NCBI RefSeq assembly: GCF_051903065.1
Contig: NZ_CP178438.1
Reading direction: 5' to 3' (one strand)
Length of the DNA: 64,000 nucleotides
Source: Escherichia coli
GTDB taxonomy: Bacteria; Pseudomonadota; Gammaproteobacteria; Enterobacterales; Enterobacteriaceae
A program made the position numbers and the translations under genes. Position 1 is the first letter of the stretch. Each line of letters starts with the position of its first letter. The notes beneath the pieces are model-generated. The model was given only the letters and a program-made list of their open reading frames with translations. It was not told the origin of the DNA and searched no databases. Positions 6,017 to 64,000 of the stretch are shown piece by piece.

Positions 6017-7073
6017 TCAAAATAATCCGTGGGATACCACGCCAGCGGCGGACAGTGCCGCACAATCCGCAGACGCCTGGGGTACACCGGCGACTGCACC
6101 GACTGACGGCGGTGGTGCTGACTGGCTGACCAGTACGCCTGCGCCAAACGTCGAGCATTTTAATATTCTCGATCCGTTCCATAAAACGCTGATCCCGCTC
6201 GACAGTTGGGTCACTGAAGGGATCGACTGGGTCGTTACCCATTTCCGTCCCGTCTTCCAGGGCGTGCGCGTTCCGGTTGATTATATCCTCAACGGTTTCC
6301 AGCAATTGCTGCTGGGTATGCCCGCACCGGTGGCGATTATCGTTTTCGCTCTCATCGCCTGGCAGATTTCCGGGGTCGGAATGGGTGTGGCGACGCTGGT
6401 TTCGCTGATTGCCATCGGCGCAATCGGTGCCTGGTCGCAGGCAATGGTTACTCTGGCGCTGGTGTTAACCGCCCTGCTGTTCTGTATCGTCATCGGTTTG
6501 CCGTTGGGGATATGGCTGGCGAGAAGTCCGCGAGCGGCGAAAATTATTCGTCCACTGCTTGATGCCATGCAGACCACGCCAGCGTTTGTTTATCTGGTGC
6601 CAATCGTCATGCTATTTGGTATCGGTAACGTGCCGGGCGTGGTGGTGACGATCATCTTTGCTCTGCCGCCGATTATCCGTCTGACCATTCTGGGGATTAA
6701 CCAGGTTCCGGCGGATCTGATTGAAGCCTCGCGCTCATTCGGTGCCAGCCCGCGCCAGATGCTGTTCAAAGTTCAGTTACCGCTGGCGATGCCGACCATT
6801 ATGGCGGGCGTTAACCAGACGCTGATGCTGGCCCTTTCTATGGTGGTCATCGCCTCGATGATTGCCGTCGGCGGGCTGGGTCAGATGGTACTTCGCGGTA
6901 TCGGTCGTCTGGATATGGGGCTTGCCACCGTTGGCGGCGTCGGGATTGTGATCCTCGCCATTATCCTCGATCGCCTGACGCAGGCCGTTGGGCGCGACTC
7001 ACGCAGTCGCGGCAACCGTCGCTGGTACACCACTGGCCCTGTCGGTCTGCTGACCCGCCCATTCATTAAGTAA
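6009..7073 (+). CDS. proW: Glycine betaine/proline ABC transporter permease
   Basis: 354 aa polytopic membrane protein; overlaps proV end. Confidence 0.95.
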
Positions 7074-7129: not shown

Positions 7130-8122
7130 ATGCGACATAGCGTTCTTTTTGCGACAGCGTTTGCCACGCTTATCTCTACACAAACTTTTGCTGCCGATCT
7201 GCCGGGCAAAGGCATTACTGTTAATCCAGTTCAGAGCACCATCACCGAAGAAACCTTCCAGACACTGCTGGTCAGTCGTGCGCTGGAGAAATTAGGTTAT
7301 ACCGTCACTAAACCCAGCGAAGTGGATTACAACGTTGGCTACACCTCGCTTGCTTCCGGCGATGCAACCTTCACCGCCGTGAACTGGACGCCACTGCATG
7401 ACAACATGTACGAAGCTGCCGGTGGCGATAAGAAATTTTATCGTGAAGGGGTATTTGTTAACGGCGCGGCACAGGGTTACCTGATCGATAAGAAAACCGC
7501 CGACCAGTACAAAATCACCAACATCGCACAACTGAAAGATCCGAAGATCGCCAAACTGTTCGATACCAACGGCGACGGTAAAGCGGATTTAACCGGTTGT
7601 AACCCAGGCTGGGGCTGCGAAGGTGCGATCAACCACCAGCTTGCCGCGTATGAACTGACCAACACCGTGACGCATAATCAGGGGAACTACGCAGCGATGA
7701 TGGCCGACACCATCAGTCGCTACAAAGAGGGCAAACCGGTGTTTTACTACACCTGGACGCCGTACTGGGTGAGTAATGAGCTGAAGCCAGGGAAAGATGT
7801 GGTCTGGTTGCAGGTGCCGTTCTCTGCACTGCCGGGCGATAAAAATGCCGATACCAAACTGCCGAATGGCGCGAATTACGGCTTCCCGGTCAGCACCATG
7901 CATATCGTTGCCAATAAAGCCTGGGCCGAGAAAAACCCGGCAGCAGCGAAACTGTTTGCCATTATGCAGTTGCCAGTGGCAGATATTAACGCCCAGAACG
8001 CCATTATGCATGACGGCAAAGCCTCAGAAGGCGATATTCAGGGCCACGTTGATGGCTGGATCAAAGCCCACCAGCAGCAGTTCGATGGCTGGGTGAATGA
8101 GGCGTTGGCAGCGCAGAAGTAA
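7130..8122 (+). CDS. proX: Glycine betaine/proline periplasmic binding protein
   Basis: ORF 7082..8122; start trimmed to [14 protein letters not shown] signal peptide with AAGGA RBS upstream (330 aa). Confidence 0.9.
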
Positions 8123-8130
8123 TTTTTATT

Positions 8131-8212
8131 CGGGCGGATAAGGCGTTTTCGCCGCATCCGCCGCTCTGTACACAATGCCTGATGCGACGCTGGCGCGTCT
8201 TATCATGCCTAC
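8131..8212. repeat. REP/BIME palindromic units downstream of proX
   Basis: cgggcggataaggcgttttcgccgcatccgcc and gcctgatgcgacgctggcgcgtcttatcatgcctac REP consensus palindromes. Confidence 0.8.
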
Positions 8213-8313
8213 AAACCACACCGCACATTTCAACAATCTATCTTTCATCCCATATTCATCAACATCCGCTATTATTGATTTCCAGCTTAATCATCACCTG
8301 ATGAACAAAAATA

Positions 8314-9498
8314 ATGACCAAACCTAATCATGAGCTTAGCCCGGCGCTAATCGTGCTGATGTCTATCGCCACCGGTCTGGCGGTCGCCAGCAACTATTAC
8401 GCCCAGCCATTGCTCGACACCATCGCGCGTAACTTTTCCCTTTCCGCCAGTTCGGCAGGCTTTATTGTTACCGCCGCGCAGTTGGGCTATGCCGCCGGTC
8501 TGCTGTTTCTTGTTCCTCTGGGTGACATGTTTGAACGTCGCCGCCTGATTGTCTCAATGACCTTACTGGCGGCAGGTGGCATGTTAATTACTGCCAGCAG
8601 TCAGTCGCTGGCGATGATGATCCTCGGTACGGCATTAACCGGTTTGTTCTCGGTCGTGGCACAAATTCTGGTTCCGCTGGCAGCAACGTTGGCATCACCA
8701 GACAAACGCGGCAAAGTGGTTGGCACCATTATGAGCGGTCTGCTGCTGGGGATCTTACTCGCACGGACCGTTGCCGGATTGCTGGCGAACCTCGGCGGCT
8801 GGCGCACCGTCTTTTGGGTCGCTTCGGTATTAATGGCACTGATGGCGCTGGCGTTATGGCGTGGTCTGCCACAAATGAAATCAGAAACCCACCTCAACTA
8901 CCCACAGTTGTTAGGTTCCGTTTTCAGCATGTTTATCAGCGATAAGATCCTGCGCACCCGCGCATTGCTGGGCTGCCTGACTTTTGCCAACTTCAGCATT
9001 CTCTGGACCTCGATGGCCTTTTTGCTTGCCGCTCCACCTTTTAACTACAGCGATGGCGTAATTGGTCTGTTTGGACTTGCGGGGGCTGCCGGAGCGTTGG
9101 GCGCTCGTCCGGCGGGCGGTTTTGCCGACAAGGGCAAATCGCACCACACCACAACTTTCGGTCTGCTGCTGCTGTTACTTTCATGGCTGGCAATCTGGTT
9201 TGGTCACACTTCCGTACTGGCGTTGATTATCGGCATTCTGGTGCTGGACCTCACCGTACAGGGCGTGCATATCACTAACCAGACGGTAATTTATCGAATA
9301 CATCCTGATGCGCGTAATCGCCTGACCGCAGGTTACATGACCAGCTACTTTATTGGCGGTGCCGCCGGTTCGCTAATTTCAGCCTCAGCCTGGCAACATG
9401 GCGGTTGGGCTGGCGTTTGTCTGGCTGGCGCGACGATTGCCCTGGTTAACTTACTGGTCTGGTGGCGAGGTTTTCATCGTCAGGAAGCCGCAAATTAA
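8314..9498 (+). CDS. ygaY: MFS transporter, intact
   Basis: 394 aa uninterrupted ORF with 12-TM-like hydrophobic pattern; positionally ygaY. Confidence 0.8.
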   Translation: MTKPNHELSPALIVLMSIATGLAVASNYYAQPLLDTIARNFSLSASSAGFIVTAAQLGYAAGLLFLVPLGDMFERRRLIVSMTLLAAGGMLITASSQSLAMMILGTALTGLFSVVAQILVPLAATLASPDKRGKVVGTIMSGLLLGILLARTVAGLLANLGGWRTVFWVASVLMALMALALWRGLPQMKSETHLNYPQLLGSVFSMFISDKILRTRALLGCLTFANFSILWTSMAFLLAAPPFNYSDGVIGLFGLAGAAGALGARPAGGFADKGKSHHTTTFGLLLLLLSWLAIWFGHTSVLALIIGILVLDLTVQGVHITNQTVIYRIHPDARNRLTAGYMTSYFIGGAAGSLISASAWQHGGWAGVCLAGATIALVNLLVWWRGFHRQEAAN

Positions 9499-49812: not shown

Positions 49813-51639
49813 TCAGGCTCCTCGTGAAACAATAATCACCACCAGTACCGCCAGTTCAACCAGCGCCATCCGGCGGAACAGCAACGCACTCCCCTCGCAC
49901 TGCCAGCCCGGCACCAGAGACACCGGATTCAGCCATTTGCGTAGTTTCAGCACCGGCGCAAACGCCTGTTTCACCGGCATGGCAAAACCGTGAGCGGTAA
50001 TCACCATTGATTTTTCGTGGTCGTAGCCGCACACCCAGGCCGCGCCGCGGGAACGCGATGGCAAACGATCGCCTTTGCAAATCGCCATAATGATGAATGG
50101 CAGCAGCGGGCAGGCAATCAGCAGCAACGTGATCATCGGTTGAGAAACGGTGGTGTTAGCAGGCTCCAGCGGCAGAGGTACAGCAGCAGACAGCATCGGC
50201 AGCAGCCACGGCGCAGCAACACCGCCAATTACGCAGCAAATCGCCAGTGCCACTACGCTTACGCTCATCAGGAGCGGCGCACAGGTGGCGTTTTCGGCTT
50301 CTTTGGTACGCGGCGCGCCGAGGAACGTGACGCCATAGACTTTCGCCATACACATCACCGCCAGCGCACCGGTAATTGCCAGACCCACAGCGAGCAGCGG
50401 CCCCAGCAGACGGGCAATAAACGCGCCACTATTGCTCAGTTTGAAGAAGGATTGATAGATAACCCATTCCCCGGCAAAACCGTTCAGCGGCGGCAGTGCA
50501 GCCATTGCCATCAGCCCGACTAACATAGCGATGGAGATAACCGGCATTTTCTTGCCAATACCACCGAGTTTTTCGATATCGCGATGACCGGTACGGAACC
50601 AGACGCTCCCCGCCCCGAGGAACAGTACGCTTTTGAACAGGCTATGGTTAAGCAGATGGTACAGACCACCGACCAGGCCAAGAGCAATCAGCGCCGGTTG
50701 TTCGAGCGCGATACCCGTTACGCCAGCGCCCAGCCCCAGCAGGATAATGCCGATATTTTCCAGGGTGTGGTAAGCCAGTAGACGCTGGATGTTATGCTCC
50801 ATCAGCGCATACAGACCACCGACGAACGCGGTGATCATACCGAGCACCAGCAGCGCGATCCCCCACCACAGCGGTGCATTACCGCCCAGCAGTGACAGGG
50901 TTAAAATGCCCAGCAGGCCAATTTTCATGACTACCGTAGAAAACAACGCGGCAGCTGGCGCAGAGGCGTTCGCATGTGCCTGCGGCACCCAGCCGTGCAG
51001 CGGAATAATCCCGGCCAGCAGGCCAAAGCCAATCACACCGAGCAGCCAGATATCGGAACCGAGCGGCAGCTGTTGCATACGCATATCCAGCAGGCGCAGA
51101 TCCAGCGTGCCGTAACGCTGCCACAGCAGCCAGCAAGCAATCGCCAGCAGCAGAGTGCCAAGACGCCCCAGCGCAAACCACAGTTTGCCCTCTTTGCTGT
51201 TGTTGGTGAGGAACACCGCACACAAGGCCATGACTTCAGCCATTACCACGAACATGCCGAGGTTGCTGGCGATGACGGCGCAGACGGCGGCAGCCATCAA
51301 CATATTGATCTGCAAGCCGTTGCACTTCACCTGCGCGTGGCGATGCCAGTCAATGTTGTAGAGGCTGACAAACAGACCGCACAGACCGAGCGTAATCAGC
51401 CAAATCGCGTTAAGCGGAGAGATTTGCACATCGTAGCTTACCAGCGACAGCGCACCGCTCACGCCAACCGCGCCAGTCAGTACAGTGAAGCCCGCGGCTG
51501 CCGTATACAGACTACCAACAACGCCGCCAATTCCGGCTATCCAGCCGCTTAGCGCCTTTTGAAAAGAAAAGAGAAATGCCAGAACAGCGGCGGCGACAAA
51601 CCACGCCACGCCGCTATTGATCAGGGAAATTGCGCTCAT
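49813..51639 (-). CDS. hycC: Formate hydrogenlyase membrane subunit (NuoL/antiporter-like)
   Basis: 608 aa polytopic membrane ORF. Confidence 0.95.
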   Translation of the reverse strand: MSAISLINSGVAWFVAAAVLAFLFSFQKALSGWIAGIGGVVGSLYTAAAGFTVLTGAVGVSGALSLVSYDVQISPLNAIWLITLGLCGLFVSLYNIDWHRHAQVKCNGLQINMLMAAAVCAVIASNLGMFVVMAEVMALCAVFLTNNSKEGKLWFALGRLGTLLLAIACWLLWQRYGTLDLRLLDMRMQQLPLGSDIWLLGVIGFGLLAGIIPLHGWVPQAHANASAPAAALFSTVVMKIGLLGILTLSLLGGNAPLWWGIALLVLGMITAFVGGLYALMEHNIQRLLAYHTLENIGIILLGLGAGVTGIALEQPALIALGLVGGLYHLLNHSLFKSVLFLGAGSVWFRTGHRDIEKLGGIGKKMPVISIAMLVGLMAMAALPPLNGFAGEWVIYQSFFKLSNSGAFIARLLGPLLAVGLAITGALAVMCMAKVYGVTFLGAPRTKEAENATCAPLLMSVSVVALAICCVIGGVAAPWLLPMLSAAVPLPLEPANTTVSQPMITLLLIACPLLPFIIMAICKGDRLPSRSRGAAWVCGYDHEKSMVITAHGFAMPVKQAFAPVLKLRKWLNPVSLVPGWQCEGSALLFRRMALVELAVLVVIIVSRGA

Positions 51640-52247
51640 TTAACCTCTCCACTTTGAGCCTGCTGAAACAAGGTGAGATCGCCAAAGTCCGTGTTAAAGG
51701 TCAGCTCACGCTTACGTTTGCTGACGCGGGCGATATCGGTGTTATCCACCAGATGCAGGGCTTTAGTCGGGCACATCCGCACGCAGGCCGGACCTTGTTC
51801 ATCAAAGCTACAAAGGTCACATTTGACGGCGATCGCGCGAATACCTGGCACCCAGTCAAGCAATGTGCTGACACGCGCCGGAGCAGGCGGTGCCGGTGGC
51901 GCTTTCGGGGTATTGGCGTTTGCCGGAATATCCAGCGGACGGCTGCCGGAAAATTCAATTGCGCCAAACGGGCAGGCGATGCCGCACAGTTTGCAGCTTA
52001 CGCACAGGCTTTCATTCAACTGCACGGCCCCATCAACGCGGGTGATGGCGTTAACCGGGCAGACCACCGCGCAGGGTGCATCTTCACAGTGGTGACAGAG
52101 CTGCGGCGCAGATTCTTTTTCATTTAGCATCACTCTCAGGCGCGGCATTGATTGCAGGCCGTGCTGGCGATGCGTCTCTGAACAGGCGGCCTCACAAGTG
52201 TGGCAGCCGATACAGAGCGTGGAGTCAGCAATTACAAAACGATTCAC
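51636..52247 (-). CDS. hycB: Formate hydrogenlyase Fe-S subunit
   Basis: 203 aa; multiple 4Fe-4S CxxCxxCxxxC motifs. Confidence 0.95.
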   Translation of the reverse strand: MNRFVIADSTLCIGCHTCEAACSETHRQHGLQSMPRLRVMLNEKESAPQLCHHCEDAPCAVVCPVNAITRVDGAVQLNESLCVSCKLCGIACPFGAIEFSGSRPLDIPANANTPKAPPAPPAPARVSTLLDWVPGIRAIAVKCDLCSFDEQGPACVRMCPTKALHLVDNTDIARVSKRKRELTFNTDFGDLTLFQQAQSGEVK

Positions 52248-52371
52248 CAGGCATTCCTCAGGTGATTGTCATTTTTGACGAAAACATGCCGATGAAATGT
52301 CATTTTCGACACTCATCGACACGCCCATCCCCAAACAGGCGTAACGCCTGCAAAACGGGCAAAGCCTCAGC

Positions 52372-52833
52372 TCATGCTGCCGGGCTTTGTCCCTTTACCA
52401 GTTGGCTTAAATTCACCGGCACATTGTTTTCAATAGCGGTGTATAAGCTGTCGTAAACGCCAGCGATTTTTTCGAGATAGTGTTCCAGAACCTGTTCGCG
52501 ATCGCGGATGTTGACCTTGCCATCAATCATGCCGTCAATGCTCAGTTGTGCCTGCGCAATCCGCTGTTTGTCTTCGCCATCTTTTGTTTCGACGTAATAC
52601 TCGATGGTGTGGCTGTTAAAGCCATCCGCCAGGGTGACGTAAATACGAAAATGTTCAAAAAGGACGAAACAGAGTTCTTTGTCCGGCGCGCAGCTCATGG
52701 CGTGATGCAGGCGAGCTTTCGATAACGTGATCCCCTGAACCAGCGAATTGCAGTAGATGTGCCACTGGTCCTGTAGGCGACGATGCCGCTGTGCGATGTA
52801 ATCGGCTTTCTCGCTTATTTCCCAAATAGTCAT
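52372..52833 (-). CDS. hycA: Formate hydrogenlyase regulatory protein
   Basis: 153 aa ORF, first gene of hyc operon. Confidence 0.95.
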   Translation of the reverse strand: MTIWEISEKADYIAQRHRRLQDQWHIYCNSLVQGITLSKARLHHAMSCAPDKELCFVLFEHFRIYVTLADGFNSHTIEYYVETKDGEDKQRIAQAQLSIDGMIDGKVNIRDREQVLEHYLEKIAGVYDSLYTAIENNVPVNLSQLVKGQSPAA

Positions 52834-52870
52834 TGTCAGGTTACCCGTTTAACAGAGATGCCAGCTTTAA

Positions 52871-52885
52871 GCATTTTTTGTGCCA
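52871..52885 (-). promoter_or_regulatory. Sigma54 promoter of hyc operon
   Basis: Reverse complement tggcacaaaaaatgc (-24 GG / -12 GC) upstream of hycA. Confidence 0.7.
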
Positions 52886-52998
52886 ACTTTTAATTTATTG
52901 TTATTAAAGCGATTTTTAAGATTTTGGTGAATTTCGTCGCCGTGTCGACGTGTCATTTCGACATCATCGACATTATTCACTGCAGGGATAATCAACAC

Positions 52999-53013
52999 TG
53001 GCACAATTATTGC
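52999..53013 (+). promoter_or_regulatory. Sigma54 promoter of hyp operon
   Basis: tggcacaattattgc upstream of hypA; divergent from the hyc promoter. Confidence 0.8.
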
Positions 53014-53044
53014 CTGTAGCTGGCAATAGTTAATGGGAGGCGAT

Positions 53045-53395
53045 ATGCACGAAATAACCCTCTGCCAACGGGCACTGGAATTGATCGAACAGCAGGCCGC
53101 AAAACACGGCGCAAAACGCGTAACTGGGGTCTGGCTCAAAATTGGCGCATTTTCTTGTGTCGAAACCAGCTCTCTTGCCTTTTGTTTTGATCTGGTTTGC
53201 CGCGGCAGCGTGGCGGAAGGTTGTAAACTGCACCTCGAAGAACAAGAGGCCGAATGCTGGTGTGAAACATGCCAACAGTATGTGACGCTACTGACCCAGC
53301 GCGTCCGCCGCTGTCCACAGTGTCATGGTGACATGCTACAGATTGTGGCAGACGACGGTTTACAGATTCGGCGGATAGAAATAGACCAGGAGTGA
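53045..53395 (+). CDS. hypA: Hydrogenase nickel incorporation protein
   Basis: ORF 53033..53395; start MHEITLCQRALE (116 aa); CxxC...CxxC zinc site. Confidence 0.95.
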   Translation: MHEITLCQRALELIEQQAAKHGAKRVTGVWLKIGAFSCVETSSLAFCFDLVCRGSVAEGCKLHLEEQEAECWCETCQQYVTLLTQRVRRCPQCHGDMLQIVADDGLQIRRIEIDQE

Positions 53396-53398
53396 GCG

Positions 53399-54271
53399 AT
53401 GTGTACAACATGCGGTTGCGGTGAAGGCAACCTGTATATCGAGGGTGATGAACATAACCCTCATTCCGCGTTTCGTAGCGCGCCATTTGCCCCGGCGGCA
53501 CGCCCGAAGATGAAAATCACCGGCATTAAAGCGCCTGAATTTACCCCCAGCCAGACTGAAGAAGGCGACCTGCATTACGGTCATGGCGAAGCGGGCACTC
53601 ACGCACCGGGCATGAGCCAGCGCCGGATGCTGGAAGTCGAAATTGACGTGCTGGACAAAAACAACCGTCTGGCTGAACGCAACCGCGCGCGCTTTGCTGC
53701 CCGCAAGCAACTGGTGCTCAACCTGGTTTCCAGCCCTGGTTCCGGTAAAACCACCCTGCTGACGGAAACCTTAATGCGCCTGAAAGACAGCGTTCCGTGC
53801 GCGGTTATTGAAGGCGATCAGCAAACCGTGAACGATGCCGCACGCATTCGCGCTACCGGCACACCAGCGATTCAGGTGAATACCGGTAAAGGCTGCCATC
53901 TTGACGCACAGATGATTGCTGACGCCGCACCGCGCCTGCCACTGGACGATAACGGTATTCTGTTTATCGAAAACGTTGGCAACCTCGTATGCCCGGCCAG
54001 CTTCGATCTCGGTGAAAAACACAAAGTGGCGGTGCTTTCCGTTACCGAAGGTGAAGACAAACCGCTGAAATATCCGCATATGTTTGCCGCCGCCTCGCTG
54101 ATGCTGCTCAACAAAGTTGACCTGTTGCCGTATCTCAACTTTGACGTTGAGAAGTGCATCGCCTGCGCCCGCGAAGTCAATCCAGAAATTGAAATCATCC
54201 TTATTTCCGCCACCAGCGGCGAAGGGATGGACCAGTGGCTGAACTGGCTGGAGACACAGCGATGTGCATAG
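53399..54271 (+). CDS. hypB: Hydrogenase nickel incorporation GTPase
   Basis: 290 aa; N-terminal MCTTCGCG metal site, P-loop GSPGSGKTT. Confidence 0.95.
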
Positions 54272-54534
54272 GCGTTCCCGGCCAGATCCGCACCATTGAC
54301 GGCAACCAGGCGAAAGTCGACGTCTGCGGCATTCAGCGCGATGTCGATTTAACGTTAGTCGGCAGCTGCGATGAAAACGGTCAGCCGCGCGTGGGCCAGT
54401 GGGTACTGGTACACGTTGGCTTTGCCATGAGCGTAATTAATGAAGCCGAAGCACGCGACACTCTCGACGCCTTACAAAACATGTTTGACGTTGAGCCGGA
54501 TGTCGGCGCGCTGTTGTATGGCGAGGAAAAATAA
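54262..54534 (+). CDS. hypC: Hydrogenase maturation chaperone
   Basis: ORF 54235..54534; start [11 protein letters not shown] (90 aa). Confidence 0.95.
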
Positions 54535-55655
54535 TGCGTTTTGTTGATGAATATCGCGCGCCGGAACAGGTGATGCAGTTAATTGAGCATCTGCGCGAAC
54601 GTGCTTCACATCTCTCTTACACCGCCGAACGCCCTCTGCGGATTATGGAAGTGTGCGGTGGTCATACCCACGCCATTTTTAAATTCGGCCTCGACCAGTT
54701 ACTGCCTGAAAACGTTGAGTTTATCCACGGTCCGGGTTGCCCGGTGTGCGTACTGCCGATGGGCAGAATCGACACCTGCGTGGAGATTGCCAGCCATCCG
54801 GAAGTCATCTTCTGTACCTTTGGCGACGCCATGCGCGTGCCGGGGAAACAGGGATCGCTGTTGCAGGCAAAAGCACGCGGTGCCGATGTGCGCATCGTCT
54901 ATTCGCCGATGGATGCGTTGAAACTGGCGCAGGAGAATCCAACCCGCAAAGTGGTGTTCTTCGGCTTAGGTTTTGAAACCACCATGCCGACCACCGCCAT
55001 CACTCTGCAACAGGCGAAAGCGCGTGATGTGCAGAATTTTTACTTCTTCTGCCAGCACATTACGCTTATCCCGACGCTTCGCAGTTTGCTGGAACAGCCG
55101 GATAACGGTATCGACGCGTTCCTCGCGCCGGGCCACGTTAGTATGGTTATCGGCACTGATGCCTATAATTTTATCGCCAGCGATTTTCAGCGTCCGCTGG
55201 TGGTCGCTGGTTTCGAACCCCTTGATCTACTGCAAGGCGTGGTGATGCTGGTGGAGCAGAAAATAGCGGCCCACAGCAAGGTAGAGAATCAGTATCGTCG
55301 GGTGGTACCGGATGCCGGTAACCTGTTGGCGCAACAGGCGATTGCCGATGTGTTCTGTGTCAACGGCGACAGCGAATGGCGCGGCTTAGGCGTGATTGAA
55401 TCTTCTGGCGTGCACCTGACGCCGGATTATCAACGATTCGATGCCGAAGCACATTTCCGCCCGGCACCGCAGCAGGTCTGCGATGACCCGCGCGCGCGTT
55501 GTGGCGAAGTCTTGACGGGCAAATGTAAGCCGCATCAATGCCCGCTGTTTGGTAACACCTGTAATCCTCAAACCGCGTTTGGTGCGCTGATGGTTTCCTC
55601 CGAAGGAGCGTGCGCCGCGTGGTATCAGTATCGTCAGCAGGAGAGTGAAGCGTGA
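54534..55655 (+). CDS. hypD: Hydrogenase maturation protein
   Basis: 373 aa; CGxH and CPVC motifs. Confidence 0.95.
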   Translation: MRFVDEYRAPEQVMQLIEHLRERASHLSYTAERPLRIMEVCGGHTHAIFKFGLDQLLPENVEFIHGPGCPVCVLPMGRIDTCVEIASHPEVIFCTFGDAMRVPGKQGSLLQAKARGADVRIVYSPMDALKLAQENPTRKVVFFGLGFETTMPTTAITLQQAKARDVQNFYFFCQHITLIPTLRSLLEQPDNGIDAFLAPGHVSMVIGTDAYNFIASDFQRPLVVAGFEPLDLLQGVVMLVEQKIAAHSKVENQYRRVVPDAGNLLAQQAIADVFCVNGDSEWRGLGVIESSGVHLTPDYQRFDAEAHFRPAPQQVCDDPRARCGEVLTGKCKPHQCPLFGNTCNPQTAFGALMVSSEGACAAWYQYRQQESEA

Positions 55656-56662
55656 ATAATATCCAACTCGCCCACGGTAGCGGCGGCCAGGCGATGCAGC
55701 AATTAATCAACAGCCTGTTTATGGAAGCCTTTGCCAACCCGTGGCTGGCAGAGCAGGAAGATCAGGCACGTCTTGATCTGGCGCAGCTGGTAGCGGAAGG
55801 CGACCGTCTGGCGTTCTCCACCGACAGTTACGTTATTGACCCGCTGTTCTTCCCTGGCGGTAATATCGGCAAGCTGGCGATTTGCGGCACCGCCAATGAC
55901 GTTGCGGTCAGTGGCGCTATTCCGCGCTATCTCTCCTGTGGCTTTATCCTCGAAGAAGGATTGCCGATGGAGACACTGAAAGCCGTAGTGACCAGCATGG
56001 CAGAAACCGCCCGCACGGCAGGCATTGCCATCGTTACTGGCGATACTAAAGTGGTGCAGCGCGGCGCGGCAGATAAACTGTTTATCAACACCGCGGGCAT
56101 GGGCGCAATTCCGGCGAATATTCACTGGGGCGCACAGACGCTAACCGCAGGCGATGTATTGCTGGTTAGCGGTACACTCGGCGACCACGGGGCGACTATC
56201 CTTAACCTGCGTGAGCAGCTGGGGCTGGATGGCGAACTGGTCAGCGACTGCGCGGTGCTGACGCCGCTTATTCAGACGCTGCGTGACATTCCCGGCGTGA
56301 AAGCGCTGCGTGATGCCACCCGTGGTGGTGTAAACGCGGTGGTTCATGAGTTCGCGGCAGCCTGCGGTTGCGGTATTGAAATTTCTGAATCAGCGCTGCC
56401 GGTTAAACCTGCCGTGCGCGGCGTTTGCGAATTGCTGGGACTGGACGCCCTGAACTTTGCCAACGAAGGCAAACTGGTGATCGCCGTTGAACGCAACGCG
56501 GCAGAGCAAGTGCTGGCAGCGTTACATTCCCATCCACTGGGGAAAGACGCGGCGCTGATTGGTGAAGTGGTGGAACGTAAAGGTGTTCGTCTTGCCGGTC
56601 TGTATGGCGTGAAACGAACCCTCGATTTACCACACGCCGAACCGCTTCCGCGTATATGCTAA
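55652..56662 (+). CDS. hypE: Hydrogenase maturation carbamoyl dehydratase
   Basis: 336 aa; PurM-like fold; C-terminal PRIC. Confidence 0.95.
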   Translation: MNNIQLAHGSGGQAMQQLINSLFMEAFANPWLAEQEDQARLDLAQLVAEGDRLAFSTDSYVIDPLFFPGGNIGKLAICGTANDVAVSGAIPRYLSCGFILEEGLPMETLKAVVTSMAETARTAGIAIVTGDTKVVQRGAADKLFINTAGMGAIPANIHWGAQTLTAGDVLLVSGTLGDHGATILNLREQLGLDGELVSDCAVLTPLIQTLRDIPGVKALRDATRGGVNAVVHEFAAACGCGIEISESALPVKPAVRGVCELLGLDALNFANEGKLVIAVERNAAEQVLAALHSHPLGKDAALIGEVVERKGVRLAGLYGVKRTLDLPHAEPLPRIC

Positions 56663-56735
56663 TAAAATTCTAAATCTCCTATAGTTAGTCAATGACCTTT
56701 TGCACCGCTTTGCGGTGCTTTCCTGGAAGAACAAA

Positions 56736-58814
56736 ATGTCATATACACCGATGAGTGATCTCGGACAGCAAGGGTTGTTCGACATCACTCGGACACTATT
56801 GCAGCAGCCCGATCTGGCCTCGCTGTGTGAGGCTCTTTCGCAACTGGTAAAGCGTTCTGCGCTCGCCGACAACGCGGCTATTGTGTTGTGGCAAGCGCAG
56901 ACTCAACGTGCGTCTTATTACGCATCGCGTGAAAAAGACACCCCCATTAAATATGAAGACGAAACTGTTCTGGCACACGGTCCGGTACGCAGCATTTTGT
57001 CGCGCCCTGATACGCTGCATTGCAGTTACGAAGAATTTTGTGAAACCTGGCCGCAGCTGGCCGCAGGTGGGCTATACCCAAAATTTGGTCACTATTGCCT
57101 GATGCCACTGGCGGCGGAAGGGCATATTTTTGGTGGCTGTGAATTTATTCGTTATGACGATCGCCCCTGGAGCGAAAAAGAGTTCAATCGTCTGCAAACA
57201 TTTACGCAGATCGTTTCTGTCGTCACCGAACAAATCCAGAGTCGCGTCGTTAACAATGTCGACTATGAGTTGTTATGCCGGGAACGAGATAACTTCCGCA
57301 TCCTGGTCGCCATCACCAACGCGGTGCTTTCCCGCCTGGATATGGACGAACTGGTCAGCGAAGTCGCCAAAGAAATCCATTACTATTTCGATATTGACGA
57401 TATCAGTATCGTCTTACGCAGCCACCGTAAAAACAAACTCAACATCTACTCCACTCACTATCTTGATAAACAGCATCCCGCCCACGAACAGAGCGAAGTC
57501 GATGAAGCCGGAACCCTCACCGAACGCGTGTTCAAAAGTAAAGAGATGCTGCTGATTAATCTCCACGAGCGGGATGATTTAGCCCCCTATGAACGCATGT
57601 TGTTCGACACCTGGGGCAACCAGATTCAAACCTTGTGCCTGTTACCGCTGATGTCTGGCGACACCATGCTGGGCGTGCTGAAACTGGCGCAATGTGAAGA
57701 GAAAGTGTTTACCACTACCAATCTGAATTTACTGCGCCAGATTGCCGAACGTGTGGCAATCGCTGTCGATAACGCCCTCGCCTATCAGGAAATCCATCGT
57801 CTGAAAGAACGGCTGGTTGATGAAAACCTCGCCCTGACCGAGCAGCTCAACAATGTTGATAGTGAATTTGGCGAGATTATTGGCCGCAGCGAAGCCATGT
57901 ACAGCGTGCTTAAACAAGTTGAAATGGTGGCGCAAAGTGACAGTACCGTGCTGATCCTCGGTGAAACTGGCACGGGTAAAGAGCTGATTGCCCGTGCTAT
58001 CCATAATCTCAGTGGGCGTAATAATCGCCGCATGGTCAAAATGAACTGCGCGGCGATGCCTGCCGGATTGCTGGAGAGCGATCTGTTTGGTCATGAGCGT
58101 GGGGCTTTTACTGGTGCCAGCGCCCAGCGCATTGGTCGTTTTGAACTGGCGGATAAAAGCTCCCTGTTCCTCGACGAAGTGGGCGATATGCCACTGGAGT
58201 TACAGCCGAAGTTGCTGCGTGTATTGCAGGAACAGGAGTTTGAACGCCTCGGCAGCAACAAAATCATTCAGACGGACGTGCGTCTAATCGCCGCGACTAA
58301 CCGCGATCTGAAAAAAATGGTCGCCGACCGTGAGTTCCGTAGCGATCTCTATTACCGCCTGAACGTATTCCCGATTCACCTTCCGCCACTACGCGAGCGT
58401 CCGGAAGATATTCCGCTGCTGGCGAAAGCCTTTACCTTCAAAATTGCCCGTCGTCTGGGGCGCAATATCGACAGCATTCCTGCCGAGACGTTGCGCACCT
58501 TGAGTAATATGGAGTGGCCGGGTAACGTACGCGAACTGGAAAACGTCATTGAGCGCGCGGTATTGCTAACACGCGGCAACGTGCTGCAGCTGTCATTGCC
58601 AGATATTGCTTTACCGGAGCCTGAAACGCCGCCTGCCGCAACGGTTGTCGCCCAGGAGGGCGAAGATGAATATCAGTTGATTGTTCGCGTGCTGAAAGAA
58701 ACTAACGGCGTGGTTGCCGGGCCTAAAGGCGCTGCGCAACGTCTGGGGCTGAAACGCACGACCCTGCTGTCACGGATGAAGCGACTGGGAATTGATAAAT
58801 CGGCATTGATTTAA
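56736..58814 (+). CDS. fhlA: Formate hydrogenlyase transcriptional activator (sigma54 EBP)
   Basis: ORF 56700..58814; start MSYTPMSDLGQQ (692 aa); GAF domains, AAA+ GETGTGKE and GAFTGA, C-terminal HTH. Confidence 0.95.
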   Translation: MSYTPMSDLGQQGLFDITRTLLQQPDLASLCEALSQLVKRSALADNAAIVLWQAQTQRASYYASREKDTPIKYEDETVLAHGPVRSILSRPDTLHCSYEEFCETWPQLAAGGLYPKFGHYCLMPLAAEGHIFGGCEFIRYDDRPWSEKEFNRLQTFTQIVSVVTEQIQSRVVNNVDYELLCRERDNFRILVAITNAVLSRLDMDELVSEVAKEIHYYFDIDDISIVLRSHRKNKLNIYSTHYLDKQHPAHEQSEVDEAGTLTERVFKSKEMLLINLHERDDLAPYERMLFDTWGNQIQTLCLLPLMSGDTMLGVLKLAQCEEKVFTTTNLNLLRQIAERVAIAVDNALAYQEIHRLKERLVDENLALTEQLNNVDSEFGEIIGRSEAMYSVLKQVEMVAQSDSTVLILGETGTGKELIARAIHNLSGRNNRRMVKMNCAAMPAGLLESDLFGHERGAFTGASAQRIGRFELADKSSLFLDEVGDMPLELQPKLLRVLQEQEFERLGSNKIIQTDVRLIAATNRDLKKMVADREFRSDLYYRLNVFPIHLPPLRERPEDIPLLAKAFTFKIARRLGRNIDSIPAETLRTLSNMEWPGNVRELENVIERAVLLTRGNVLQLSLPDIALPEPETPPAATVVAQEGEDEYQLIVRVLKETNGVVAGPKGAAQRLGLKRTTLLSRMKRLGIDKSALI

Positions 58815-58858
58815 CAGATGTGGTTATACTCGATCAACATTCAATGAAAGGAGGCAGT

Positions 58859-59287
58859 ATGGCAGTTTCAGCAAGAAATCAATTAACCGGAACAGTTAGC
58901 GCAGTAGCAATGGGCGCGGTGAATGACGAAGTAGAACTGACGCTGGCAGGTGGTGCAAAGCTGGTGGCAATTGTGACTCACAGCAGCCAGCAGGCTCTGG
59001 GTCTGGCGAAAGGGAAAGAAGCGATTGCCCTGATTAAAGCCCCGTGGGTAACGCTGGCAACGGAAGACTGTGGACTGAAATTCTCTGCTCGCAACCAGTT
59101 TGCTGGCAGCGTGTCGACAATCACCGAAGGCGCAGTGAACGCCACTGTCCATATCAAAACGGATGCGGGTTTTGAAATTGTGGCAGTGGTAACAAATGAA
59201 AGTCAGGATGAAATGAAACTCACCACTGGCTCACGCGTTATTGCATTGATCAAAGCATCAGCCATCCTGATTGCCACCAAAGCGTAA
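58859..59287 (+). CDS. Stand-alone di-Mop (tandem TOBE) molybdate/tungstate-binding protein, ModG-like
   Basis: ORF 58820..59287; AAAGGAGG RBS before ATG at 58859 (142 aa); two internally repeated Mop units each beginning SARNQ(L/F)xGxV. Confidence 0.75.
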   Translation: MAVSARNQLTGTVSAVAMGAVNDEVELTLAGGAKLVAIVTHSSQQALGLAKGKEAIALIKAPWVTLATEDCGLKFSARNQFAGSVSTITEGAVNATVHIKTDAGFEIVAVVTNESQDEMKLTTGSRVIALIKASAILIATKA

Positions 59288-59296
59288 ACGCCTTAT

Positions 59297-59322
59297 TTGC
59301 CGGAGAGTATGGCTCTCCGGCA
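59297..59322. terminator. Inverted repeat / bidirectional terminator between mop and ygbA
   Basis: gccggagag-tatg-gctctccggc followed by T-rich tract. Confidence 0.6.
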
Positions 59323-59325
59323 GAT

Positions 59326-59670
59326 TTATTTCTTTGGACGATATTTTTCTGGCAACTCCGGCACCGGACGCTTGTCATCGATGAGATGACGCACGGTTAA
59401 GATCGGATGACGCCACAGCATTCTCGGCCCGGCCCAACGCATAATCTGTTTCATCTCTTCACGCTTTGCAGGCTGGTAACAGTGCACCGGACACTGCTTA
59501 CAGGCTGGTTTCTCTTCGCCGAACACACATTTATCCAGCCGCTTTTGCGCGTAAGCAAACAACGCCTCGTAATGCTCCGGCTCCGCTGACGCCTGCGGGC
59601 ATTTCGCTTGATAAAGATCGATCATTTTTTTAATCGTCAGTTTTTCACGAGAGATACGCTTGCCGGACAT
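59326..59670 (-). CDS. ygbA: Cysteine-rich small protein, positionally ygbA
   Basis: 114 aa ORF with C-x-x-C-x-x-x-C cluster, divergent from mutS; symbol assigned by position only. Confidence 0.6.
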   Translation of the reverse strand: MSGKRISREKLTIKKMIDLYQAKCPQASAEPEHYEALFAYAQKRLDKCVFGEEKPACKQCPVHCYQPAKREEMKQIMRWAGPRMLWRHPILTVRHLIDDKRPVPELPEKYRPKK

Positions 59671-59956
59671 GCTGCCTCCATCTCATTAAGATGCATTTAT
59701 ATTACAACTTAATCTTAAAGGGCACTATGACTCTAAAGAAGAAGGGTTCGCCAACCGATACAATTTTGCGTACTTGCTTCATAAGCATCACGCAAAAGCT
59801 GCAAAACAGCATCTTTCCCGGAACCAGCATCAAGAACTCGCCGTTCGCTTCTTCCCCTGAAATGATTAACTCCGGTATCATGTGCGCCTTATGTGATTAC
59901 AACGAAAATAAAAACCATCACACCCCATTTAATATCAGGGAACCGGACATAACCCC

Positions 59957-62518
59957 ATGAGTGCAATAGAAAATTTCGACGCCCATACGCCCATGATGCA
60001 GCAGTATCTCAAGCTGAAAGCCCAGCATCCCGAGATCCTGCTGTTTTACCGGATGGGTGATTTTTATGAACTGTTTTATGACGACGCAAAACGCGCGTCG
60101 CAACTGCTGGATATTTCACTGACCAAACGAGGTGCTTCAGCGGGAGAGCCGATCCCGATGGCGGGGATCCCCTACCATGCGGTGGAAAACTACCTCGCCA
60201 AACTGGTGAATCAGGGCGAGTCCGTTGCCATCTGCGAACAAATTGGCGATCCGGCGACCAGCAAAGGTCCGGTTGAGCGCAAAGTTGTGCGTATCGTTAC
60301 GCCAGGCACCATCAGCGATGAAGCCCTGTTGCAGGAGCGTCAGGACAACCTGCTGGCGGCTATCTGGCAGGACAGCAAAGGTTTCGGCTACGCGACGCTG
60401 GATATCAGTTCCGGGCGTTTTCGCCTGAGCGAACCGGCTGACCGGGAAACGATGGCGGCAGAACTGCAACGCACTAATCCTGCGGAACTGCTGTATGCAG
60501 AAGATTTTGCTGAAATGTCGTTAATTGAAGGCCGTCGCGGCCTGCGCCGTCGCCCGCTGTGGGAGTTTGAAATCGACACCGCGCGCCAGCAGTTGAATCT
60601 GCAATTTGGCACTCGCGATCTGGTCGGTTTTGGCGTCGAGAACGCGCCGCGCGGACTTTGTGCTGCCGGTTGTCTGTTGCAGTATGCGAAAGATACCCAA
60701 CGTACGACTCTGCCGCATATTCGTTCCATCACCATGGAACGTGAGCAGGACAGCATCATTATGGATGCCGCGACGCGTCGTAATCTGGAAATCACCCAGA
60801 ACCTGGCGGGTGGTGCGGAAAATACGCTGGCTTCTGTGCTCGACTGCACCGTCACGCCGATGGGCAGCCGTATGCTGAAACGCTGGCTGCATATGCCAGT
60901 GCGCGATACCCGCGTGTTGCTTGAGCGCCAGCAAACTATTGGCGCATTGCAGGATTTCACCGCCGGGCTACAGCCGGTACTGCGTCAGGTCGGCGACCTG
61001 GAACGTATTCTGGCACGTCTGGCTTTACGAACTGCTCGCCCACGCGATCTGGCCCGTATGCGCCACGCTTTCCAGCAACTGCCGGAGCTGCGTGCGCAGT
61101 TAGAAACTGTCGATAGTGCACCGGTACAGGCGCTACGTGAGAAGATGGGCGAGTTTGCCGAGCTGCGCGATCTGCTGGAGCGAGCAATCATCGACACACC
61201 GCCGGTGCTGGTACGCGACGGTGGTGTTATCGCATCGGGCTATAACGAAGAGCTGGATGAGTGGCGCGCGCTGGCTGACGGCGCGACCGATTATCTGGAG
61301 CGTCTGGAAGTCCGCGAGCGTGAACGTACCGGCCTGGACACGCTGAAAGTTGGCTTTAATGCGGTGCACGGCTACTACATTCAAATCAGCCGTGGGCAAA
61401 GCCATCTGGCACCCATCAACTACATGCGTCGCCAGACGCTGAAAAACGCCGAGCGCTACATCATTCCAGAGCTAAAAGAGTACGAAGATAAAGTTCTCAC
61501 CTCAAAAGGCAAAGCACTGGCACTGGAAAAACAGCTTTATGAAGAGTTGTTCGACCTGCTGTTGCCGCATCTGGAAGCGTTGCAACAGAGCGCGAGCGCG
61601 CTGGCGGAACTCGACGTGCTGGTGAACCTGGCGGAACGGGCCTATACCCTGAACTACACCTGCCCGACCTTTATTGATAAACCGGGCATTCGCATTACCG
61701 AAGGCCGCCATCCGGTGGTTGAACAGGTGCTGAACGAGCCATTTATCGCCAACCCGCTGAACCTGTCGCCACAGCGTCGCATGTTGATCATTACCGGTCC
61801 GAATATGGGCGGTAAAAGTACCTATATGCGCCAGACCGCACTGATTGCGCTGATGGCCTACATCGGCAGCTATGTACCGGCACAAAAAGTTGAGATTGGA
61901 CCTATCGATCGCATCTTTACCCGCGTAGGGGCAGCGGATGATCTGGCATCCGGGCGTTCAACCTTTATGGTGGAAATGACCGAAACCGCCAATATTTTAC
62001 ATAACGCCACCGAGTACAGTCTGGTACTGATGGATGAGATTGGGCGCGGAACTTCCACTTACGATGGTCTGTCGCTGGCGTGGGCGTGCGCGGAAAATCT
62101 GGCGAATAAGATTAAAGCATTGACGTTGTTTGCTACCCACTATTTCGAGCTGACCCAGTTACCGGAGAAAATGGAAGGCGTCGCCAACGTGCATCTCGAT
62201 GCACTGGAGCACGGCGACACCATTGCCTTTATGCATAGCGTGCAGAATGGCGCGGCGAGCAAAAGCTACGGCCTCGCGGTTGCAGCTCTGGCCGGCGTGC
62301 CAAAAGAGGTTATTAAGCGCGCACGGCAAAAACTGCGTGAGCTGGAAAGCATTTCGCCGAACGCCGCCGCTACGCAAGTGGATGGTACACAAATGTCTTT
62401 GCTGTCCGTACCGGAAGAAACCTCGCCTGCGGTCGAGGCACTGGAAAACCTCGATCCAGATTCACTCACCCCGCGTCAGGCGCTGGAATGGATTTATCGC
62501 CTGAAGAGTCTGGTGTAA
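59957..62518 (+). CDS. mutS: DNA mismatch repair protein MutS
   Basis: 853 aa; Walker [10 protein letters not shown], mismatch-binding N-terminal domain. Confidence 0.98.
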
Positions 62519-62523
62519 TAATA

Positions 62524-62552
62524 ATTCCCGATAGTCTTTTGCTATCGGGAAT
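62524..62552 (+). terminator. Inverted repeat after mutS (weak terminator)
   Basis: attcccgatag-tcttttg-ctatcgggaat; no strong T-run. Confidence 0.4.
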
Positions 62553-62623
62553 ATTAACGATAACTGACGAATCAAATAAAAATACCCTGTATAATAGGAA
62601 AGCTTATTTTACAGGGTAAAACC

Positions 62624-63280
62624 ATGCCATCTACACGCTATCAAAAAATCAATGCCCATCACTATCGCCATATATGGGTCGTTGGTGATATTCATGGTGA
62701 ATATCAGTTATTACAATCCCGCTTAAATCAACTCTCTTTTTTCCCCGAAACCGACTTACTTATTTCTGTCGGTGATAATATTGATCGTGGGCCGGAGAGT
62801 CTTAACGTCCTGCGCCTGCTAAACCAGCCCTGGTTTATCTCCGTTAAAGGCAACCACGAAGCAATGGCGCTGGATGCGTTCGCGACCGGCGATGGCAATA
62901 TGTGGCGTGCCAGCGGTGGTGACTGGTTTTTCGATTTAAATGATTCAGAGCAACAAGAGGCAATAGATCTGTTGCTGAAATTCCATCACCTTCCACATAT
63001 TATTGAAATCACTAACGACAACATAAAATATGTCATCGCACATGCAGATTATCCGGGGAGTGAATATCTCTTTGGTAAAGAAATAGCGGAGAGCGAATTA
63101 CTCTGGCCTGTTGATCGTGTGCAGAAATCACTTAATGGCGAGTTACAACAAATAAACGGCGCTGATTATTTTATATTTGGACATATGATGTTTGATAACA
63201 TTCAGACGTTCGCTAACCAGATTTATATTGATACCGGATCGCCGAAAAGCGGGCGGCTGTCATTTTATAAAATAAAGTAA
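62624..63280 (+). CDS. pphB: Serine/threonine protein phosphatase 2 (PPP family)
   Basis: 218 aa; metallophosphatase motifs GDIHG, GDNIDRG, GNHE; AT-rich codon usage. Confidence 0.9.
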   Translation: MPSTRYQKINAHHYRHIWVVGDIHGEYQLLQSRLNQLSFFPETDLLISVGDNIDRGPESLNVLRLLNQPWFISVKGNHEAMALDAFATGDGNMWRASGGDWFFDLNDSEQQEAIDLLLKFHHLPHIIEITNDNIKYVIAHADYPGSEYLFGKEIAESELLWPVDRVQKSLNGELQQINGADYFIFGHMMFDNIQTFANQIYIDTGSPKSGRLSFYKIK

Positions 63281-63284
63281 TGAG

Positions 63285-63320
63285 GCCGGGTAAAGCAAAG
63301 CCACTACCCGGCACTTTTTA
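63285..63320 (+). terminator. Terminator hairpin after pphB
   Basis: gccgggta...tacccggc stem followed by acttttta. Confidence 0.6.
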
Positions 63321-63557
63321 TTAGCGCTTACCTTCCGCCAGCAGCGGCGGGATGCTCGGCACCATTGGCGCGTCATCAATATCTTTCTGCGTCATGCGGA
63401 ACGCTTCGGGATAATGTTCGCGGCTGGTACGGCGCAGCGGTTCGGTATCGCGCCAGGTATAAAGGCAATGCTGGCACTGATATACCGTCCAGACATCTTT
63501 CACCGGCGATTTCGCCATCACTTCAATCTGTTCATCGGCACAACGTGGACAAATCAT
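63321..63557 (-). CDS. Hydroxyarylic acid decarboxylase small subunit D (zinc-ribbon)
   Basis: 78 aa; CPRC...CQHC zinc ribbon; resembles the small D subunit of non-oxidative phenolic acid decarboxylases (EcdD/BsdD/VdcD type). Confidence 0.7.
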   Translation of the reverse strand: MICPRCADEQIEVMAKSPVKDVWTVYQCQHCLYTWRDTEPLRRTSREHYPEAFRMTQKDIDDAPMVPSIPPLLAEGKR

Positions 63558-63567
63558 CTTGTTCTCC

Positions 63568-64000
63568 TTATTTACGTGCAGCCAGCATAGCGGTCAGTTT
63601 TTCAGCCCAGGCTTTGGTTTCCGGCAAATCCACCACCGGCTGGCTGTAGTGACCACGGTTGTCCGGGGCGACAGGCGTGGTGGCGTCGATAATCAGCTTG
63701 TCGGTGATCCCCGCCGGGCTTGAGCCAGGGTCGAGTTCCAGCACGGACATATTCGGCAACTGCACCAAATCCCCTGCCGGATTTACTTTCGAGGAGAGCG
63801 CCCACATCACCTGCGGCAGGTTGAACGGGTCAACGTCTTCATCGACCATAATCACCATCTTTACGTAGCCCAGACCGTGCGGCGTGGTCATCGCACGCAG
63901 GCCCACCGCGCGGGCAAAGCCGCCGTAGCGTTTTTTGGTGGAGATAATCGCCAGCAGGCCGTGGGTGTACATGGCGTTTACCGCCTGCACTTCCGGGAAC
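63568..64000 (-). CDS. UbiD-family decarboxylase subunit C, C-terminal portion (partial; N-terminus beyond window end)
   Basis: Minus-strand ORF running off the window edge; the listed Met is internal; UbiD-like C-terminal domain immediately upstream of the D subunit. Confidence 0.65.
   Translation of the reverse strand, partial: FPEVQAVNAMYTHGLLAIISTKKRYGGFARAVGLRAMTTPHGLGYVKMVIMVDEDVDPFNLPQVMWALSSKVNPAGDLVQLPNMSVLELDPGSSPAGITDKLIIDATTPVAPDNRGHYSQPVVDLPETKAWAEKLTAMLAARK

Follow-up and report, generated by a model that had tools for sequence, protein, structure and literature searches.

The window, i.e., the whole 64-kb stretch of Escherichia coli DNA that was analyzed, carries between fhlA and mutS a small gene that we refer to as mop. 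Its upstream neighbor is fhlA (56736–58814, plus strand; stop codon at 58812–58814), the gene for the transcriptional activator of formate hydrogenlyase (FHL), and across a spacer of 44 bp (58815–58858) this is followed on the same strand by an intact, ATG-initiated open reading frame of 142 codons plus a TAA stop (58859–59287). On the other side, ygbA (59326–59670, minus strand) is convergent with mop, and mutS starts at 59957. The preliminary description of this DNA had pointed to a 142-aa reading frame with a strong ribosome-binding site, and we found both in place: the Shine-Dalgarno sequence AAAGGAGG lies on the plus strand at 58847–58854, 4 nt upstream of the ATG at 58859, and the comparison of loci revealed a Shine-Dalgarno sequence of GGAGG type ahead of the ATG in nearly all orthologous genes. 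A longer version of the frame that begins with a GTG at 58820 (155 aa) is used by a few database entries. We rejected it because the orthologues of ca. 40 species all begin with M-[ASTQ]-[VI]-S-A-R-N at the ATG, and it is also opposed by the spacers upstream of the orthologues, which range from 36 to 101 bp with lengths that are out of frame. The GC content of mop (0.51) is unremarkable. RefSeq names its product “TOBE domain-containing protein” or “molybdopterin-binding protein” (WP_000301062.1), while “transporter” and “molybdenum-pterin-binding protein” are found as labels in other sources.

The whole 142-aa polypeptide is made up of two tandem Mop/TOBE domains and contains no other domain. 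Pfam TOBE (PF03459) matches it twice, at residues 4–66 (58868–59056, plus strand; E = 1.6e-17) and at residues 76–137 (59084–59269, plus strand; E = 6.2e-16), and NCBIfam TIGR00638 “Mop” likewise matches twice, with 142 bits (cut-off 55). The two SARNQ-led repeats that had first drawn attention to the gene are indeed present as SARNQLTGTV (residues 4–13) and SARNQFAGSV (residues 76–85). In sequence searches of the PDB, the best match was ModG of Azotobacter vinelandii (1h9j; E = 5e-33, residues 1–140), followed by the di-Mop domain of ModE (E~1e-15) and then by single-domain Mop and Tub proteins that align to each half, e.g., Tub residues 2–67 to residues 74–139 of the mop protein. An AlphaFold2 monomer model built from an alignment of 37 homologs reached a mean pLDDT of 96.8 and was superimposed by Foldseek on ModG 1h9j with a TM score of 0.95 and an rmsd of 1.3 Å at 48% identity, and on ModE with TM scores of 0.88–0.90 at 34–36% identity. 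The suggestion that this is a di-Mop protein of ModG-type architecture is therefore borne out by the paired PF03459 and TIGR00638 matches and by ModG as the closest solved relative, and the identity of the mop product as a ModG-type molbindin, as judged from its sequence and predicted fold, is well supported.

Proteins of this kind bind oxyanions at two types of sites. In Tub of Eubacterium limosum, the type-1 site is formed by the backbone of A20, V21, and N22 and the type-2 site by S4, R6, K60, and A61 together with S40 of a neighboring chain, and the sites of ModG, Mop, and ModE are described as similar (PMC11980592). We transferred the ligand roles from the Tub, Mop, and ModE structures as described there. 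The mop protein has both site types, i.e., the backbone A-V-N site on the three-fold axis and the S, R, S/T, K, A site at the subunit interface, with the contact residues of both types present in each of its Mop domains. The predicted ligands are S4, R6, A20-V21-N22, T40, and K60-A61 in domain 1 and the same set shifted by 72 positions in domain 2 (S76, R78, A92-V93-N94, T112, and K132-A133). In the alignments of 37 homologs, which extend to 46% identity, each of these positions is either invariant or conserved to 90% or more. Binding of molybdate or tungstate, its stoichiometry, and the formation of a trimer are properties that the mop protein would be expected to share by analogy with these relatives.

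Since the Mop/TOBE sites of ModE (1h9r), MopII (1gug), and Tub (9beb) bind tungstate as well as molybdate, one might suppose that the mop protein is mainly a tungstate sink that would keep the wrong metal out of FDH-H and other Mo enzymes in the gut. The ModG architecture is also common in gut species that are predicted to use tungsten (PMC11980592). However, nothing in the sequence separates a preference for W from one for Mo, and the loci that we examined have no linked genes for W-enzymes or tupABC, so that we regard a role primarily in tungstate sequestration as improbable.

Comparison with structurally characterized proteins places mop more closely. Like ModG of A. vinelandii (PDB 1H9J/1H9K/1H9M), the mop product is a stand-alone protein of ca. 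142–145 aa with two tandem Mop/TOBE domains, both of which keep the motifs SARN and AVN as well as K-A at the ligand positions, and it is 48% identical to ModG over the full length, at the close structural agreement given above (TM 0.95, rmsd 1.3 Å for the predicted fold). Unlike ModG, whose gene lies in a mod context, mop forms the 3′ end of hyp-fhlA without a detected ModE box, and its host does not fix nitrogen. In work by Mouncey et al. of 1995/1996, A. vinelandii modG was reportedly found linked to modEABC and regulated by ModE. Neither linkage to mod genes nor co-regulation with them by ModE was seen for mop, which follows fhlA away from the mod genes; linkage to mod genes and control by ModE characterize the gene of Azotobacter and do not define the protein family.

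The C-terminal di-Mop part of E. coli ModE (PDB 1H9R/1H9S/1O7L/1B9M) has the same two-domain fold (TM 0.88–0.90, 34–36% identity) and the same type-2 ligand residues (SARN, T/S, KAPWV). ModE, however, carries an N-terminal winged-helix DNA-binding domain (ca. 262 aa in total) that the mop protein lacks, and the alignment of PDB sequences shows that the second domain of ModE has ADNQ where the mop protein keeps SARN with full ligand motifs. Consistently, the ModE profile NF007957 gives the mop protein 88 bits (cut-off 369), with coverage limited to profile positions 124–261. An identity as a ModE regulator was rejected because the protein has 142 aa and no DNA-binding domain, while the upstream spacer does not code for protein and differs in length between loci. 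Mop/MopII (C. pasteurianum 1GUG, S. ovata 1FR3) and Tub (Eubacterium limosum 9BEB) are proteins of ca. 70 aa with 30–40% identity to each half of the mop protein, and the numbering of their type-1 (A20, V21, N22) and type-2 (S4, R6, S/T40, K60, A61) residues is identical to it. These relatives are hexamers of single-domain chains, whereas the fused mop protein would, judging from ModG, need to form a trimer for the same 32-symmetric assembly. The TOBE domains of ABC ATPases (ModC/WtpC/MalK type) were considered and rejected as well, given that ModC and WtpC models match the last 60–70 positions only and stay far below their cut-offs; the chains of MalK and PotA are remote fold matches only (TM ca. 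0.63–0.66). The ModG architecture is a known storage class in a survey of TOBE proteins (mBio 2025). Taken together, mop represents an annotated yet uncharacterized enterobacterial orthologue group of the known ModG family; whatever the role of mop may be, both this family and its chemistry have been well worked out.

The signals around mop suggest that it is transcribed together with the genes upstream. Our scans found neither a terminator-like site nor a σ70-consensus promoter between fhlA and mop and no σ70-consensus promoter anywhere from 58300 to 60000, and the spacer (58815–58858, plus strand) contains no significant RNA structure (z = −0.06). Downstream of mop, a strong hairpin with a U-rich tail at 59295–59325 appears to serve as a bidirectional intrinsic terminator for mop on the plus strand (dG −23.7, z = −5.2) and ygbA on the minus strand (z = −4.2), and alignment shows that it takes the position of the hairpin located right after fhlA in K-12. 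Because no terminator or σ70-consensus promoter separates fhlA from mop and a strong terminator hairpin comes after it, co-transcription of mop with hyp-fhlA is likely. The distal promoter of such a hypABCDE-fhlA(-mop) unit is likely the exact σ54 consensus TGGCACAATTATTGC upstream of hypA (52999–53013, plus strand) that we found by pattern scan, as suggested by its position and the known FhlA regulon. The only exact σ54 matches are at 52871 and 52999, none of them near mop, and we take these two to be the known divergent hyc/hyp promoters. An anaerobic internal promoter within hypA is also established. A search of the 64-kb window for ModE operators yielded no TATATA-N5-8-TATATA and no CGNTATATA-N6-TATATANCG at up to 3 mismatches, and Rfam gave no match at gathering score from 50000 to 64000.

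The spacer does hold one motif that might indicate some promoter activity of its own. The sequence TGTGGTTATACT at 58819–58830, ca. 29 nt upstream of the ATG, resembles a −10 element without a −35 and is conserved in the form TGTGGyTATACT in Escherichia, Citrobacter, Kluyvera, and Pseudocitrobacter, with GGCTATAAA in the Pluralibacter group. We did not adopt a reading of the TATACT motif as an extended −10 element because there is no usable −35 and the TG is one base out of register, though the −10-like motif leaves room for an additional promoter in the spacer that would belong to mop itself.

Across E. coli, mop is present in some genomes and absent from others. The preliminary description gave ygbA as the only gene between fhlA and mutS in K-12, and MG1655 indeed has no mop and just 36 bp from the stop of fhlA to that of ygbA. 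We found mop in 1892 of 5426 complete E. coli genomes (35%), including ST131 and Nissle 1917, always as a single chromosomal copy that is full-length in all but three (1889/1892), and because so many genomes carry the same gene at the same site, it is not a chance reading frame. The empty junction of K-12 type is found in 3500 genomes (64.5%), including O157:H7, and the two states together account for 99.4% of all genomes. The block that separates the haplotypes (58815–59359) consists of the spacer, mop, and 72 diverged bp, in place of which K-12 has ca. 80 bp. The K-12 allele does not equal the window allele minus mop, given that 59288–59359 are diverged as well (ca. 29 differences, among them an indel of 8 bp). 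The terminator hairpin and the final codons of ygbA fall within these 72 bp, whose K-12 counterpart is 6418–6500 of the extracted K-12 locus, and YgbA ends with ...RPKK in the window and with ...RPKKPHE, i.e., 3 residues longer, in K-12. The sequence flanking the block is ca. 99% identical between alleles. The window-type hairpin is common to B2 strains, E. albertii, and a cryptic Escherichia clade; the K-12 block is 59% identical to the Escherichia allele with mop and 67% identical to that of C. amalonaticus. None of the 5426 genomes has an intermediate haplotype that would combine mop with the K-12-type terminator. The K-12 allele therefore looks like the result of a block replacement rather than of a simple deletion.

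To place this polymorphism in a wider context, we scanned one genome per species, which resulted in 80 loci in which HypE, FhlA, YgbA, and MutS were positioned by tblastn. Among 42 species representatives with an orthologue of at least 79% identity, 36 have fhlA directly upstream of mop on the same strand, mostly with a spacer of 36–56 bp and at most with 101 bp. They comprise Citrobacter, Pseudocitrobacter, Klebsiella, Raoultella, Kluyvera, Pluralibacter, Enterobacter, Lelliottia, Yokenella, and Kosakonia as well as E. albertii and a cryptic Escherichia clade. E. fergusonii shows the gene order hypBCDE-fhlA-mop-ygbA, and E. albertii, E. fergusonii, the cryptic clade, and ca. 12 other enterobacterial genera share hypE-fhlA-mop-ygbA. 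Because this order is conserved across Escherichia and other genera, mop is ancestral at the fhlA site and the K-12 state is a loss: in Escherichia, and in most genera of Enterobacteriaceae that we examined, the hyp-fhlA cluster originally ended with mop. Of the proposal that mop might be strain-variable content, the variability thus stands, but the gene is not an accessory addition to some strains; it is an ancestral gene that strains with a K-12-type junction have lost.

Where it is present, mop is under strong purifying selection. Its dN/dS is 0.02–0.10 in comparisons with 14 species of other genera, between which synonymous sites are saturated, and the 6 nt that distinguish it from the Nissle 1917 allele and the 9 nt that distinguish it from the FUJ80154 allele are all synonymous changes. 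These data effectively refute the idea that mop is a relic without function, in decay and about to disappear from E. coli, for which one could cite its absence from 64.5% of complete genomes and the truncation by IS1 in one of them. A relic would hardly be full-length in 1889 of 1892 carriers, differ among three E. coli alleles at synonymous positions only, and retain its Shine-Dalgarno sequence and all ligand residues at such low dN/dS across genera, so that we give this explanation almost no credence.

Not all relatives of mop are found next to fhlA. The copies in Salmonella (87–89% identity) lie away from it in chaperone-usher fimbrial islands with fragments of IS66 and IS21, and from this location it follows that mop has also moved horizontally. 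Varied contexts were found for homologs of up to 75% identity in Buttiauxella, Yersinia, Edwardsiella, Brenneria, and Cedecea, the last four not near fhlA, and also for homologs of ca. 50% identity in Pseudomonas and Herbaspirillum, those of Pseudomonas again not near fhlA. Linkage of a homolog to modABC was seen only in gamma proteobacterium HdN1, in a Thiobacillus MAG, and in part in one proteobacterial MAG (with no match to ModA); other apparent “ModC/ModF” neighbors were discounted as generic ABC ATPases. One of the islands with mop in Salmonella enterica also has an MsrPQ-like pair of molybdoenzyme genes ca. 3 kb away.

Conversely, some genomes have kept mop at its ancestral site after losing the genes around it. 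In Raoultella sp. BIGb0138 (7647–8447 of the extracted locus), ascF-ascB and a C-terminal fragment of HycI are directly followed by mop, i.e., the hyc-hyp-fhlA cluster is deleted and mop has been retained between ascB and ygbA. Enterobacter sp. BIGb0383 shows a similar loss of the cluster with mop kept between ascB and ygbA, where a NadS-family gene intervenes. In three genomes of Phytobacter/Kosakonia type, mop follows hypE without fhlA. We considered the hypE-mop spacer of Phytobacter (128–132 bp) as a possible remnant of the fhlA 3′ end and make no such claim, given a weak peptide resemblance and no nucleotide similarity.

These observations bear on a reading in which mop encodes a general-purpose molbindin without a specific tie to FHL that is driven by a weak or constitutive promoter of its own within the spacer and sits after fhlA as a frozen accident of ancestral gene order. 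The retention of mop in genomes that no longer have the FHL cluster or fhlA, its location elsewhere in Salmonella and more distant Enterobacterales, the conserved −10-like TGTGGyTATACT upstream of the ATG, and the dispensability of the gene in most E. coli would all fit. On the other hand, a frozen accident does not readily account for the tight same-strand adjacency of fhlA and mop across ca. 12 genera in spite of saturated synonymous sites, and an own promoter is at odds with a spacer that has no recognizable −35, no match to the σ70 consensus, and no terminator toward fhlA. We therefore consider this reading possible, if doubtful.

The preliminary description called the position after fhlA suggestive and proposed a role in Mo/W homeostasis or signaling for FHL. 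K-12, the model strain for FHL, has normal FHL without mop. This functional FHL weakens the link, and so do the genomes that have lost hyc-hyp-fhlA (or fhlA in Phytobacter) and kept mop and the homologs in Salmonella and more distant organisms that sit elsewhere. For the homeostasis part, the same-strand order in 36 of 42 representatives and the missing terminator speak weakly in favor, while K-12, carriers without FHL, and the scattered homologs speak against it; for the signaling part, we found nothing in favor. The link to FHL is one of synteny only and, as such, a reasonable hypothesis about the timing of mop expression, not about a dependency. Our literature search retrieved no paper that links a molbindin, molybdenum-pterin binding protein, or TOBE protein to FHL or fhlA.

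Stronger versions of the link fare accordingly. That mop might be a functional member of the FHL regulon, induced along with hyp-fhlA and involved in capturing molybdate, handing it over, or telling it apart from tungstate for the synthesis of the FDH-H cofactor, or else in modulating the molybdate signal that acts through ModE/MoeA at hyc and fdhF, seems unlikely to us. A dedicated sensor or regulator, whose Mo-loaded form would act on FhlA, ModE, or MoeA and thereby tune hyc/fdhF or the delivery of Mo to FDH-H, could draw on the conserved operon-like linkage to the FHL activator gene, on the ca. 35% identity to the sensing domain of ModE, and on the requirement of hyc/fdhF expression and FHL activity for molybdate and ModE (PMC3149613). 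However, the protein has no DNA-binding or other effector domain, the Mo-dependent regulation of hyc was defined in K-12 and thus in a strain without mop, and mop persists in some genomes that lack fhlA. A sensor function for FHL is accordingly hard to credit.

The reading that we favor, and consider probable, is that mop encodes a cytoplasmic ModG-type molbindin that buffers Mo/W, is expressed by read-through from hyp-fhlA, and is dispensable, having been lost in strains of K-12 type. By analogy with ModG, the protein would assemble into a trimer, i.e., a pseudo-hexamer of Mop domains, that could reversibly bind up to eight molybdate or tungstate ions and thereby buffer or store the cytoplasmic pool of these oxyanions. 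Its mRNA would arise mainly by read-through of the hyp-fhlA unit from the σ54-, FhlA-, and formate-dependent promoter ahead of hypA and from the anaerobic internal promoter. If so, the cell would be able to buffer more Mo at times when it produces anaerobic molybdoenzymes, among them the Mo/Se enzyme FDH-H. The gene might then be helpful when Mo is scarce or fluctuates and yet be dispensable, and it is due to this proposed dispensability that most E. coli lineages would tolerate its loss.

What is known of FHL and of gene control by Mo comes almost wholly from K-12, which carries a derived allele without mop. Should mop be a functional part of the FHL regulon after all, the standard picture of how FHL is made and regulated, as drawn from K-12, would miss an ancestral and widely conserved operon member. 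If mop affects the supply of Mo to FDH-H or another of the anaerobic molybdoenzymes, then the trace-metal economy of ExPEC and probiotic lineages such as ST131 and Nissle 1917, and of most Enterobacteriaceae beyond E. coli, would not be that of K-12 when Mo runs short or tungstate is present in the gut, and this would matter for how H2 and formate are metabolized during colonization. If mop has no such effect, it would be a tidy case of the lineage-specific loss of a dispensable metal-buffering protein.

A few further observations concern individual genomes and the vicinity of the locus. In the clinical isolate E. coli FDAARGOS_1285 (NZ_CP070152.1; 1501–3126 of the extracted locus), IS1A truncates mop after ca. 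126–138 nt and the next annotated gene is nlpD, so that the segment ygbA-mutS-...-rpoS appears to be deleted; if it is, this strain would likely have a mutator and rpoS-null genotype. Between ygbA and mutS, RefSeq annotates a 44-aa hypothetical protein (WP_000611936.1; window ca. 59747–59881, minus strand; 6889–7023 in the extracted locus with mop) in strains that carry mop; it is missing from the annotation of MG1655. Toward the end of the window (63321–64000), pphB is followed by genes for subunits D and C of a hydroxyarylic acid decarboxylase on the minus strand where K-12 has ygbI, a variant that is present in 2415 of the 5426 complete genomes including O157:H7; this is the known polymorphic mutS-rpoS region. 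Finally, the window falls into one lineage with the human isolates 23CRST027 and 23CRST031, to which its positions 52000–64000 are 100% identical, and with ECNB21-M121 from meat, to which they are essentially identical.
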